Of a stretch of DNA of 64,000 nt, positions 47,561 to 60,808 are shown in pieces (positions within the stretch are counted from its first letter, which is position 1; every line of letters begins with the position of its first letter). The translations under genes were made by a program, and so were the position numbers. Origin of the DNA: Planctomycetota bacterium (GTDB lineage Bacteria > Planctomycetota > Phycisphaerae > WQYP01); the NCBI GenBank assembly GCA_021818445.1, contig JAKAEB010000001.1, forward strand, positions 16,664 to 80,663, written 5' to 3'. The notes below the pieces were generated by a model. It did not search any database, had not been told where the DNA came from, and saw only the letters and a list, made by a program, of their open reading frames with translations.

Positions 47561-47890
47561 ATGTCGATATTGTTAAGCGAGACAGCGGCCCGTGAAATTC
47601 GTAACATCATGAAAGAGCAGGGCCTCAGTGAGAACGTCGCCCTTCGCGTTGGTGTTAAAGGCGGCGGCTGTTCCGGCTTCAGCTATGTGCTTGATCTGAC
47701 CGACGATCAAAGCGAGAATGATGAAGTGATGGAATCGCATGGGGTAAAAGTGGTGTCGGACCGCAAAAGTTACCTCTACCTTAACGGAACCGAAATCGAT
47801 TTCAAAGATGAAGTAATGGGGCGCGGGTTTGTTTTCAAAAATCCCAACGCTACCCACACCTGCGGTTGCGGTTCGTCTTTCAGCGCGTAA
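47561..47890 (+). CDS. HesB/IscA-type iron-sulfur cluster insertion protein
   Basis: 109 aa. GGGCSGFSY and the C-terminal CGCGSSF Cys ligands. Confidence 0.85.
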   Translation: MSILLSETAAREIRNIMKEQGLSENVALRVGVKGGGCSGFSYVLDLTDDQSENDEVMESHGVKVVSDRKSYLYLNGTEIDFKDEVMGRGFVFKNPNATHTCGCGSSFSA

Positions 47891-47926
47891 GCGCGCAGCC
47901 ACGAGGTTTAGTATATTGATTAACAG

Positions 47927-47950
47927 GGCCGGGGTTACCCGGCCTTTTTT
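47927..47950 (+). terminator. Rho-independent terminator after iscA-type gene
   Basis: GGCCGGG-gtta-CCCGGCC followed by TTTTTTATT. Confidence 0.6.
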
Positions 47951-52694: not shown

Positions 52695-53585
52695 TCAGTC
52701 GACAGTTCTCAGTGAAAGCCCCAGTTCAGCCAAACGGCTTTTTACCTCGTCCAAACTGGTTTCGCCAAAGTTTTTAACACCAAGCAATTCGGCTTCGGTT
52801 CGCGCCGCCAAATCGCCCACGGTTGCAATGCCGAGCCGTTCAAGTGCTCGCGCGGCCCGCAGAGGCAATTGCAATTCGGTGACGGGTTTGGCAAAGGTTT
52901 CCGGAGGGACGCGATCTGCCACCTGCTTGAGAATTTCCTGCTTCTGCATTTCATGGGCTTCATCGGCGGCCTGCCCGAGCCGCAAACCTTTTTTCGTGAG
53001 CATCTGCTTGATTTCGTCGAGGCTGGTTTCACCAAAATTCTTGTAGCTCAGCAGGTCTGCTTCCGTGGTACGCAGCAGATCGCCCAGTGATCGAATGTTC
53101 ATCTTCTTGAGGCAATTGCGAGCGCGGGCGGAAAGTTCAAAATCTGTCACCGAGGTGCTCAGCAGCAGATCACGCGGGGCCAGGCGTCTTTCGGGCTCTT
53201 CCTGCACTTCCATACCGATGGAACCATCCACGTGCTGATAATACATTCGGCCCATCGGGTGGTTGGGGTCGGCCTGCAAGAGACGATGAAGACACTTTTC
53301 GGCTTCATCATACATACCATCATCCTCGTACAGGACCGATAGGTTGATAAGCACATTGGCATAAGTCGGCTGCTTTTCAGCCAGCAATTCATAAAGCTCA
53401 ATGGCACGATCATCGTCGCCTGATAAATCCTGATAGCACGCAAGTTGAAAGGTAATCGCATCATCATCGGGAGATTTGGCATGCGCTTCCTCCAGCAGGT
53501 CCACGGCCTTTTCAAGTTGGCCGATATGCACAAGTTCATGTGCCCGCTGTATTACTTCCGGCTGATTGGTCGTCATGGTGGTCAT
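52695..53585 (-). CDS. TPR + tandem RNA polymerase alpha-subunit C-terminal-domain-like (HhH) protein
   Basis: Two copies of LxxSVxxLELSxRAxNxLxxxGIxTVGDLxxxTEAELLxxKNFGETSLDEIK, the alpha-CTD signature. N-terminal TPR. Confidence 0.6.
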   Translation of the reverse strand: MTTMTTNQPEVIQRAHELVHIGQLEKAVDLLEEAHAKSPDDDAITFQLACYQDLSGDDDRAIELYELLAEKQPTYANVLINLSVLYEDDGMYDEAEKCLHRLLQADPNHPMGRMYYQHVDGSIGMEVQEEPERRLAPRDLLLSTSVTDFELSARARNCLKKMNIRSLGDLLRTTEADLLSYKNFGETSLDEIKQMLTKKGLRLGQAADEAHEMQKQEILKQVADRVPPETFAKPVTELQLPLRAARALERLGIATVGDLAARTEAELLGVKNFGETSLDEVKSRLAELGLSLRTVD

Positions 53586-57394: not shown

Positions 57395-57444
57395 TCGCTC
57401 GCCGCCTCTCCGTGGCTACACAAAAAAATCAGCTTACCAAACTT

Positions 57445-57490
57445 GGAGTTGGGGTGTCGTCAAAACACCCCAACTCCAGTTTTCTTTTGG
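57445..57490. terminator. Bidirectional rho-independent terminator (13-bp stem)
   Basis: GGAGTTGGGGTGT-cgtcaaa-ACACCCCAACTCC with AGTTTTCTTTTGG on the plus side and AAGTTTGG...ATTTTTTT on the minus side. Sits between the tiny ORF end and the leuA stop. Confidence 0.65.
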
Positions 57491-57514: not shown

Positions 57515-59086
<1,572 letters not shown>

Positions 59087-59102
59087 GGCGCTACTCCATA
59101 GT

Positions 59103-59136
59103 AAAACAAAAAACCCCGCGATTTTGGCTCGCAGGG
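59103..59136 (-). terminator. leu attenuator terminator hairpin + U-tract
   Basis: Minus strand: CCCTGCGA-gccaaaa-TCGCGGGG followed by TTTTTTGTTTT, ~17 nt before the leuA ATG. Confidence 0.55.
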
Positions 59137-59167
59137 TTTCAGGATCAATCAAAAATAATGGAACACC

Positions 59168-59230
59168 CTAAGAGCTTGCCGAAATTACTCGTGTAAGTAG
59201 AAGCAGCAGGCTGATGGTGTTTTGGGTCAT
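59168..59230 (-). CDS. Leucine operon leader peptide (5 consecutive Leu codons)
   Basis: Minus strand atg acc caa aac acc atc agc ctg ctg ctt cta ctt aca cga gta att tcg gca agc tct tag = MTQNTISLLLLLTRVISASS. GAAAGGGAAACG RBS-like upstream. Confidence 0.5.
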   Translation of the reverse strand: MTQNTISLLLLLTRVISASS

Positions 59231-59762
59231 CGTTTCCCTTTCAACTGGTAATAATGGTAATGCCAAGGGGTAAAATGTCAAATCCCAGTCGGCAGCGGGG
59301 CGGTTTCACACAAAGCACGCCGTTGTCTATTGCGGCCCATCCGCCACCCGCCAAAGCGCCTACCACCCCCAACCCGGTGGTCATATGACATTCGTGGCAA
59401 TGCTGCCCACATATATGATTCTGGGCTGGCCCGTAAGCGCTCATTTACCGAAGCCTCAGCCAATGCCAATATCTTTGCGAGCGTAGCGCTCCCCGCTATG
59501 TAAATGGTTTCTTATTAATCGCGGAGGCCATAGCATTGACACTGCTGAGAATATTCGAACTGGCTATGCCTCGATTTTCCGCGGGGCAACCCCGGCGCTG
59601 CATACTTTGGCGGAATGATGCGGTCTTTGGCGAGGTAATGGACGGATTTTGGCCGCATCGGGGGGCTTCGGTCATCAGAGATTCGTGGGCGGAAAACTGC
59701 ATGACCCACACCTGCGGCAATTTCGTCTTGACTTGCCCCCTTGTCGGTTTATCATCCGCAGT

Positions 59763-60023
59763 ATGAGAAAGTTTTCATCATTACTGGTTTTGACTTTTCT
59801 GGCGGCCTTGTTCCTCAGTACTGCCACCACATTTGGTCAGTTGGAAGAGGCACATAAGCTAAGCCCCGTCATTCCGAAGTTAAGTTCGCAGGCCCGGCCC
59901 AGCTTGGTGCCCATCTACGCGATTGCGGTCATTGCGTTTCTCGGGGTGACCGCCGTGCTGGCCCGCAGTGCCCATCGTGGTGCAAGGCGTGGCGGGCGAG
60001 ATGAGACGGTGCAGGTGGTTTAA
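59763..60023 (+). CDS. Small secreted/membrane-anchored hypothetical protein
   Basis: MRKFSSLLVLTFLAALFLSTATTFG signal peptide. C-terminal hydrophobic helix and Arg cluster (ARSAHRGARRGGRDE). Confidence 0.35.
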   Translation: MRKFSSLLVLTFLAALFLSTATTFGQLEEAHKLSPVIPKLSSQARPSLVPIYAIAVIAFLGVTAVLARSAHRGARRGGRDETVQVV

Positions 60024-60091
60024 TGGGGCATCGGGCGTGGTCCGATCGCCAATAACAAACAGGATTCTTTCCCTTACGCGGAGGCTTCATC

Positions 60092-60394
60092 ATGAAGGCA
60101 AAATCGTGGCTTATCGTGGGCTTGGGTCTGGTCAACGCGGTGCTGATTGGCGGCTTGATTGGTCGAAGTCAATTAGGCCTTTCCAAGGCGCAGGCGGCTG
60201 TCAATTTGCAAGGTGTGCGACCACTGACGGTTTCAGGGCGTTCCGGTAACGCCATGATCCTCTGGTTCTACAACGTAGATAATGGCCTGCTCACGGCGGT
60301 AGAAACACCGGGTAACGATCCGCAAATGGGCCGTTTTGCGTTCACGCGCAGTGTTAAGCTGGACATCCGGCGCGTAAAATCTCATCTGCATTGA
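60092..60394 (+). CDS. Small secreted hypothetical protein, paralog 1
   Basis: Signal peptide. Shares a Gxxx(I/V)LxxxxVDxx(N/D)GLL core with the next ORF. Confidence 0.4.
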   Translation: MKAKSWLIVGLGLVNAVLIGGLIGRSQLGLSKAQAAVNLQGVRPLTVSGRSGNAMILWFYNVDNGLLTAVETPGNDPQMGRFAFTRSVKLDIRRVKSHLH

Positions 60395-60466
60395 TCAACC
60401 AAACCGTAGCGGTCGCATGCCCAACGGCAGCGACCATCAGACCGACATTGGCTTGAAAGGAATAAC

Positions 60467-60754
60467 ATGAAAAACTCCAATCTTCTCATAGCGTTATTAA
60501 CCACCACGGCCGTCATCCTGGCCTGCCTCCTGGCACTCGGCGGCGCACCTAAGGCATCGCGGGCGGACGTGCTGGCGTCATCAACTGATTTTCAGTTGTT
60601 GACTTCATCATCCATGGCCGGCGAACCGGACGTGCTCAATATTGTTGACTGCCGGGACGGATTGCTGTTGATGTACAAGTTGCAGGGGCGGCATATTCAC
60701 CTTATCAACGCGTTTAATCTGAATCCGAATCTGCATATGCCGCACCGGCCATGA
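60467..60754 (+). CDS. Small secreted hypothetical protein, paralog 2
   Basis: Signal peptide. GEPDVLNIVDCRDGLLLMYKLQG parallels GNAMILWFYNVDNGLLTAVETPG in the preceding ORF. Confidence 0.4.
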   Translation: MKNSNLLIALLTTTAVILACLLALGGAPKASRADVLASSTDFQLLTSSSMAGEPDVLNIVDCRDGLLLMYKLQGRHIHLINAFNLNPNLHMPHRP

Positions 60755-60808
60755 TGGCACGCTGCGCGGAATCTATGGCTTACATACTGGAAAAGGGGAT
60801 CGCGGACA

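Follow-up and report, generated by a model that had tools for sequence, protein, structure and literature searches.

This study was concerned with the region upstream of leuA in a 64,000-nucleotide stretch of DNA from a Planctomycetota bacterium (assembly GCA_021818445.1, contig JAKAEB010000001.1, positions 16,664 to 80,663), the whole of which is referred to as the window. The leuA gene encodes 2-isopropylmalate synthase and lies on the minus strand (57515..59097 including its Shine-Dalgarno sequence; ATG at 59086..59084, stop codon at 57517..57515). Its protein product contains the Pfam domains HMGL-like, HCS_D2 and LeuA_dimer. The same strand carries, upstream of leuA, a short leucine-rich open reading frame (ORF), followed by a hairpin and a run of T residues. 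This arrangement is very probably a leader-peptide, ribosome-mediated transcription attenuator, through which transcription of leuA would depend on charged tRNA-Leu.

The leader ORF consists of 20 codons and a UAG stop codon (59230..59168, with the ATG at 59230) and encodes the peptide MTQNTISLLLLLTRVISASS. Its codons are ATG ACC CAA AAC ACC ATC AGC CTG CTG CTT CTA CTT ACA CGA GTA ATT TCG GCA AGC TCT TAG, and the five leucine codons in succession, CUG CUG CUU CUA CUU (59195..59209, minus strand), are the proposed site of ribosome stalling. A weak sequence resembling a Shine-Dalgarno site, AAGGGA (59235..59240, minus strand), is located 4 nucleotides (nt) upstream of the leader ATG and may serve ribosome binding; one close relative (L001, described below) carries an identical GAAAGGGAA in this region. 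The hairpin, GAAACCCTGCGA-gccaaaa-TCGCGGGGTTTT (59140..59110), begins 27 bases past the leader stop codon (from 59168 to 59140), contains 12 pairs with an energy of -18.3 kcal/mol and is followed by TTGTTTT. The end of the U-tract is 17 nt from the leuA ATG, and the leuA start is 82 nt from the leader stop. Among all ATG-initiated ORFs of 8-45 codons on both strands of the window, only the leader contains at least four consecutive leucines, and it adjoins a strong terminator-like site, of which the minus strand has only three. Thus, the co-occurrence of the two is not due to chance.

The initial annotation had placed a 20-codon ORF with five successive leucine codons on the minus strand, followed by a hairpin, a T-run and the leuA ATG. 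The ORF was found there, exact to the base, and each of the other elements was confirmed at its position. The hairpin stem it had quoted (CCCTGCGA/TCGCGGGG) is present but too short, as the stem extends to 12 pairs with the flanking A-U pairs. Its choice of MTNQ at 59086 as the leuA start was also upheld: homologues align from residue 1, and the Shine-Dalgarno sequence GGAG (59097..59094, minus strand) is located 7 nt upstream of this ATG. A longer ORF starting at a TTG is disfavoured, since it would need to be read through the conserved terminator. The description of the genome as high-GC did not hold, as the G+C content of the window is a moderate 55%.

A promoter-like site of the sigma-70 type, absent from the earlier description, was identified by a consensus scan 23 nt upstream of the leader ATG (59254..59281, minus strand). 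It comprises a -35 element TTGACA (59281..59276), a 16-nt spacer and a -10 element TACCAT (59259..59254), with 10 of 12 consensus matches. By eye, L001 (TTGACT-16-TATGCT) and a second close relative, L002 (TTGACA-16-TAACCT), carry similar sites at a comparable distance from their leader ATGs. The transcript of the window would start at approximately 59247, giving the leader a 5' untranslated region (UTR) of about 16 nt. Further upstream, the ORFs in 59300..60800 are all small, divergent and on the plus strand; their N-termini resemble signal peptides, and none matched Pfam. No gene co-oriented with the leader occurs for about 1.5 kb. The intergenic region that holds the leader is therefore divergent, which rules out that the hairpin terminates a co-oriented gene upstream. 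Downstream, leuA appears to be monocistronic because a hairpin occurs 36 nt past its stop codon and is followed by a 520-nt gap before the trigger factor gene (tig). This downstream hairpin (57443..57479) is a perfect 15-bp structure, TTGGAGTTGGGGTGT...ACACCCCAACTCCA. It is flanked by a T-run on the side of the plus strand and by only a weak T-run on that of the minus strand, and it probably terminates leuA transcripts or acts as a terminator in both directions.

The leader RNA can be divided into four segments, all on the minus strand. Segment 1 (AACACC, 59216..59221) corresponds to codons 4-5 and, in minimum free energy (MFE) folds, pairs with GGUGUU (59167..59162). This pairing is the outer stem of a 1:2 hairpin of -19.4 kcal/mol, which would act as an anti-antiterminator. 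Segment 2 (GCUCUUAGGGUGUUC, 59161..59175) is the 5' strand of the antiterminator as seen in folds of a transcript cut before segment 4, and it runs from the final leader codons through the UAG stop (59170..59168) to 7 nt past it. Segment 3 (GAAACCCUGCGAGC, 59127..59140) is common to the antiterminator and the terminator and is made up of the terminator 5' arm (59140..59129) and two loop bases. Segment 4 (59103..59121), delimited by the terminator scan, contains the terminator 3' arm UCGCGGGGUUUU (59121..59110) and the U-tract UUUUUUGUUUU, which extends to 59103. The mutually exclusive terminator and antiterminator folds that the initial annotation had suggested looking for can be drawn: in the antiterminator, GCUCUUAGGGUgUUC (59175..59161) pairs with segment 3 (59140..59127), with energies of -15.5 kcal/mol in the fold and -16.1 kcal/mol as a duplex. 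Of 11,632 control 29-mers drawn from the two strands of the window, only 0.55% pair equally well with the segment 3 arm. The leuA Shine-Dalgarno sequence is outside both the terminator and the antiterminator helices.

Attenuation is a kinetic process, and therefore the transcript was folded after being cut just before the terminator 3' arm, with the ribosome modelled as a 29-nt mask. The antiterminator formed when the mask was placed on any of the five leucine codons and was lost when the mask was placed on the UAG stop codon, because this codon is within the antiterminator strand. The last leucine codon ends 19 nt upstream of segment 2. The constrained folds thus reproduce the geometry of a stalled-ribosome attenuator, in which a ribosome on the leucine codons leaves segment 2 free and a ribosome on the stop codon hides it.

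In the proposed mechanism, RNA polymerase would initiate at the promoter-like site (59281..59254) and a ribosome would begin translating the 20-codon leader while transcription continues, the two processes being coupled. With plentiful Leu-tRNA, the ribosome would reach the UAG codon, where its footprint would hide segment 2 (59175..59161), and after its release segment 1 (59221..59216) would recapture segment 2. In both cases, segment 3 would be free for segment 4, and the 12-bp hairpin and U-tract would end transcription 17 nt before leuA. When Leu-tRNA is scarce, the ribosome would stall on the five leucine codons (59209..59195), hiding segment 1 and exposing segment 2, and segments 2 and 3 would pair before segment 4 is made. 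This pairing would block the terminator, and the polymerase would continue into leuA, so that leuA expression would respond to leucine.

In order to examine the element in other organisms, GTDB species genomes were scanned with the LeuA protein and 80 loci were returned. Planctomycetota accounted for 77 of these, the others being labelled Alcaligenaceae (L023 and L024) and Omnitrophica (L044). The closest LeuA proteins, with 91, 88 and 79% identity, came from three Planctomycetota metagenome-assembled genomes (MAGs; L001-L003), and all others were at most 63% identical, so that the window belongs to a deep, uncultured lineage of planctomycetes. The leader peptides of these three relatives are MNYTSNSLLLLLTRVISAGS, MLRRPTNLLLLRMRVNLAGS and MNSESFTSELGRRNQDDSRLLGLVLLTLQTLPGLADVM, with leucine runs of LLLLL in L001, LLLL in L002 and LLGLVLLTLQTL in L003. 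All four sequences, the window included, share an identical terminator, AAACCCTGCGAGC..TCGCGGGGTTTTTT, while its flanks diverge. A screen that needed three consecutive leucines missed L003 and several clades, which were recovered by a leucine-density criterion and by direct reading of the frames. Under this criterion, the best short ORF within 450 nt upstream of leuA had to contain at least five leucines per 8-residue window. Such a leader was present on the sense strand at 51 of 79 loci; the antisense control gave 1 of 79, and dinucleotide shuffles gave 14 of 1580. The leucine run is thus kept in orthologous leaders, both in L001-L003 and across the phylum, as the attenuator proposal of the initial annotation had anticipated. 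A terminator-like hairpin was also present at 47 loci (window included), at a median of 34 nt after the leader stop, and the median leader length at these loci was 20 amino acids.

When the leaders were placed side by side, a common pattern was observed: (C)GAACC(U) just upstream of the leucine run, GGCCNUAG|GGUUCG over the stop codon, then GAACCCCGAGGCC and GGCUUCGGGGUUUUUUUGUU. The stop codon was TAG in 31 of 47 leaders and part of TAGGG in 25 of 47, compared to TAG in 7 of 33 long ORFs of the window. At the loci of the Pirellulales/Planctomycetales type (L035-L077; for example, L052:2632-2768), the peptides end in ...RRP, ...RQP, ...RKP or ...HRP followed by UAG. The GGCCNUAGGGUUC codons complement the terminator 5' arm and resemble its 3' arm. 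The four-segment RNA pattern accounts for both the conserved asparagine (AAC) before the leucine run and the RRP/RQP/RKP-UAG ends, and the conserved C-termini therefore look like a constraint at the RNA level. A TnaC-like peptide arrest motif formed by RRP-stop is less likely. Alternatively, slow termination at the Pro-stop may hold the ribosome on segment 2.

The base pairing was evaluated on A2, an alignment of 31 sequences made with MAFFT. The terminator was 93.5% paired, with 8 of 13 pairs changed on both sides, and pairing dropped to 56-67% when the partner was slid by one column. The observed values were reached by 0 of 500 shuffles on four of five measures and by 1 of 500 on the fifth. 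The antiterminator was 75.4% paired, compared to 44-60% when slid by one column, and its covariation score was reached by 3 of 500 shuffles. For example, GCUC/GAGC in the clade of the window is replaced by GGCC/GGCC or GGUC/GGCC elsewhere. The segment 1:2 helix, whose counterpart in the family is (C)GAACC(U):(A)GGGUUCG, was 66.5% paired (3 of 500 shuffles). An energy ranking that does not depend on the alignment placed the 29-nt stretch surrounding the leader stop within the top 5% of locus controls at 29 of 47 loci; at 18 of 47 it reached the top 1%.

A covariance model, R1, was also built from 28 leaders, with only the terminator given as structure and with the window, L001 and L002 left out of the seed. 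In the window, R1 had a single significant match, at 59102..59233 on the minus strand (27.3 bits, E = 9.8e-8, positions 1-139 of 139), and the next best match had E = 0.039. Upstream of leuA and on the leuA strand, R1 matched in 51 of 80 loci, 23 of which were outside the seed. The initial annotation had regarded such an attenuator as unusual in a Planctomycetota-like genome. The counts by leucine density (51 of 79) and by R1 (51 of 80) reverse this view, as a Leu-rich attenuator is the usual state of leuA in the phylum.

The leucine codons of the leaders differ from those of the genes that follow them. In the 47 leaders, CUA makes up 15.4% of leucine codons, compared to 1.4% in the adjacent leuA genes, an 11-fold enrichment. 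CUU is enriched 2.7-fold (22.5% and 8.3%, respectively), while CUC is less frequent in the leaders (11.8%) than in leuA (31.2%). In the long ORFs of the window, CUA and CUU account for 2.8% and 16.7% of leucine codons, and one CUA and two CUU codons are among the five in the leader of the window. Rare regulatory codons are a classical means of sharpening the sensitivity of an attenuator, and CUA is used likewise in the leuL leader of E. coli.

The E. coli leuL leader encodes a 28-residue peptide upstream of leuABCD, with a terminator before leuA that is read through when Leu-tRNA is scarce (Wessler and Calvo 1981). The element in the window resembles enterobacterial leuL (RF00512) in its four-segment RNA with exclusive antiterminator and terminator, in the intrinsic terminator just upstream of leuA and in the same Leu-tRNA logic. 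However, there is no detectable homology of sequence or structure, the peptide has 20 rather than 28 residues, the stop codon is within the antiterminator strand, leuA is apparently monocistronic rather than part of leuABCD, and the host belongs to the Planctomycetota rather than the Gammaproteobacteria. Neither RF00512 (Leu_leader) nor the T-box (RF00230) matched 58900..59700 at E <= 10. A permissive Rfam scan of the same interval returned only sub-threshold noise, which included His_leader at 17 bits and matches driven by the terminator, and no family reached its gathering threshold when the whole window was scanned with Rfam 15.

In trpL of E. coli, the leader stop codon is at or near segment 2, so that a terminating ribosome blocks the antiterminator (Yanofsky). 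The window shares the 1:2, 2:3, 3:4 scheme of trpL. The regulatory codons, however, specify leucine and not tryptophan, the sequences are unrelated, and segment 1 is located just upstream of the regulatory codons, whereas that of trpL contains them. A further comparison can be made with the LEU element of Actinobacteria, a pseudoknot in which the base stem is formed between the leucine run and the leuA Shine-Dalgarno sequence, usually with no terminator, and for which classical attenuation has been doubted (PMC1262725). Like the LEU element and the leuA leaders of Corynebacterium and Streptomyces, the window has a short ORF with a leucine run before a leuA that stands alone, and its phylum too lies outside the Proteobacteria and Firmicutes. 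In contrast to the LEU element, the leader in the window combines a canonical terminator with an antiterminator, and the Shine-Dalgarno sequence of leuA is uninvolved. A base stem of the LEU type was not seen in the window: in all pseudoknot-free folds the leucine codons pair inside the 1:2 hairpin, and GGAG is not paired to the leucine run. A search of the full-text literature found no leu attenuator described for Planctomycetes, although the survey of Lopatovskaya et al. 2010 (PMID 20198868) might contain one.

The features of classical attenuators are thus found together in this leader: an ORF rich in codons for the end product before a biosynthetic gene, an intrinsic terminator, an exclusive antiterminator, the appropriate ribosome geometry and conservation in orthologues. 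The order of promoter-like site, leader ORF, terminator, Shine-Dalgarno sequence and ATG is as expected, and the distances between them are classical. The textbook ribosome-stalling attenuator proposed in the initial annotation is supported, its function being read from the sequence. Several points nevertheless weigh against it. The putative Shine-Dalgarno sequence of the leader is weak. Complete-leader folding, with or without ribosome masks, always gave the terminator, and the antiterminator was seen only in the cut transcript. Read-through would therefore have to be kinetic in this model, which is expected for attenuators. The antiterminator of the window contains one U-C mismatch and one bulged G and falls short of the terminator in stability by about 2-3 kcal/mol. 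The segment 1:2 helix has modest support, and segment 1 of the window is misaligned in A2. Since the terminator is invariant within the clade of the window, the support from covariation comes from more distant relatives. Lastly, a look-alike leuA leader in Streptomyces was reported to depart from classical attenuator behaviour upon mutation of its leucine codons (PMC1262725).

The Streptomyces result is also the main argument for a different explanation, in which a protein or other trans-acting factor chooses between the hairpins of the leader RNA and the Leu-rich ORF is secondary, as has been proposed for the actinobacterial LEU element. The S. coelicolor mutants in leucine codons upstream of leuA were inconsistent with classical attenuation (PMC1262725), and the strongly conserved motifs UAGGGUUCG and AACCCC could in principle be a binding site. 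These motifs are, however, explained by their mutual pairing in 1:2, 2:3 and 3:4. In addition, the Leu-rich ORF is kept as an ORF even though its sequence drifts, rare leucine codons are enriched in it, and in most members its stop codon is inside the antiterminator strand, which is sensible only if the position of the ribosome matters. A regulator of this kind is thus unlikely. It is also conceivable, but very unlikely, that the leader senses leucine but acts through Rho-dependent termination or by controlling leuA translation, the hairpin and U-tract having a minor role. Some members of the family do lack a clean U-tract, as in the Gemmataceae (GAUUUCGUUUC) and in the Isosphaeraceae, where no T-run was found. 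In the window, however, the hairpin is directly followed by UUUUUUGUUUU, and the terminator of an ordinary gene end (47925..47946) has the same hairpin-plus-T-run design, which indicates that the organism uses intrinsic terminators of this type. Control of translation is further disfavoured by the location of the leuA Shine-Dalgarno sequence outside the helices and by the 82 nt between the leader stop and the leuA start, which are too far apart for translational coupling.

The locus could also be merely an ordinary terminator or insulator beside a meaningless short ORF. Intergenic DNA often contains short ORFs and hairpins, and the z-score of the whole-leader fold is only -2.0; nothing more specific favours this explanation. 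It is contradicted by the uniqueness of the arrangement in the window, the absence of a co-oriented upstream gene, the conservation of the ORF relative to the antisense and shuffle controls and the match to R1 at E = 1e-7. A chance association is therefore extremely improbable, and the ORF counts across the phylum, the match to a model from which the window had been left out and the uniqueness in the window effectively refute it.

Several variants of the leader were observed within the family. A -10-like sequence, TANNNT and often TAGAGT, ends 5-9 nt upstream of the leader ATG in 16 of 46 leaders, compared to a random background of 1.8% (L003, L015, L016, L017, L025, L036, L038, L042, L043, L046, L047, L054, L060, L066, L068 and L069). 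Many of these 16 also carry TTGAC about 17 nt further upstream. Leaderless mRNAs are probably the templates for these 16 leader peptides. Mycobacteria possess leaderless attenuators with Cys-rich short ORFs, and the apparently leaderless ORFs of about one third of the Planctomycetota family, with a -10 box 5-9 nt before the ATG, are similar to these. The copy in the window differs in that its predicted 5' UTR spans about 16 nt and carries AAGGGA, and the amino acid and the phylum differ as well.

In many Pirellulales, the attenuator terminator is located 100-350 nt upstream of leuA (for example, L048:2692-3000, L064:2695-3000, L018:2720-3000 and L052:2768-3000), compared to 17 nt in the window, and this long spacer could be a second regulatory element or a plain long UTR. 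The Isosphaeraceae (L009, L011, L012, L020 and L031) have a variant leader, M-R-S-..-L-R-L-..-I-L-G-L-.-G-R, with interspersed leucines and located about 170-260 nt upstream of leuA. The scan of these variant leaders found no T-run terminator, and their R1 matches were weak or partial (17-26 bits). Their read-out may differ and may, for example, be Rho-dependent or translational. In the Gemmataceae (L015, L019, L021, L027 from Gemmata algarum, L029, L041 and L051), the leader ORF is longer and ends in ...RG..S.RVG. This ORF also contains the antiterminator strand GUUCCGGGGC, which copies the 3' arm of the terminator, and the hairpin GGCCCCGGAAC...GUUCCGGGGCC is very stable and followed by a poor U-tract (UUUCGUUUC).

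Other features of the window were noted in addition. Divergent from leuA, three successive plus-strand ORFs of about 85-100 amino acids (59649..60754) have N-termini resembling signal peptides or transmembrane segments (MRKFSSLLVLTFLAALFL..., MKAKSWLIVGLGLVNAVLIGG... and MKNSNLLIALLTTTAVILACLLALGG...) and no Pfam match. A small HesB/IscA-like gene on the plus strand (47562..47890), encoding MSILLSETAAREIRNIMKEQ...GCGSSF, is followed by the hairpin and T-run at 47925..47946. This site was considered as a second attenuator and was ruled out, as it is the ordinary terminator of that gene. On the minus strand, 52698..53585 encodes a 296-residue protein with N-terminal TPR repeats and two copies of the RNA polymerase alpha C-terminal domain (PF03118, E = 2e-41, two stretches), and this stand-alone architecture is unusual.

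For annotation purposes, the start of leuA is fixed at 59086, and 59103..59281 is a regulatory leader and not coding sequence. The family includes members of the Pirellulales, Planctomycetales, Gemmatales (including Gemmata isolates) and Isosphaerales, at least one Phycisphaerae MAG and the deep lineage of the window itself. The mechanism is a textbook one, and what is new here is the taxon and a well-defined family that extends across the phylum. The alignments A2 and A3 and the model R1 could seed an Rfam entry, and they offer a reporter design for the few tractable planctomycetes. The broader proposal is that this is an uncatalogued, phylum-wide family of leuA attenuators in the Planctomycetota with a compact design that places the stop codon in the antiterminator, that about one third of its members are leaderless, and that its presence in the Gemmataceae implies co-transcriptional translation. 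We consider the chances that all of these parts hold jointly to be evenly balanced.

The last of these parts concerns the spatial separation of transcription and translation in Gemmata-type cells, which has been both claimed and disputed (PMC6212462, PMC6554331, PMC5394234). The attenuation mechanism needs a ribosome within about 100 nt of RNA polymerase, and therefore conservation of the element in the Gemmataceae would be sequence-level evidence for co-transcriptional translation in these organisms. If this is true, the Gemmataceae members would bear on the debate over compartmentalised expression, although by inference only. The cis-regulatory RNAs of the Planctomycetota have scarcely been described, and classical attenuation is apparently widespread among them for the first committed step of leucine biosynthesis, where it would add to the allosteric LeuA_dimer domain of the LeuA enzyme itself.

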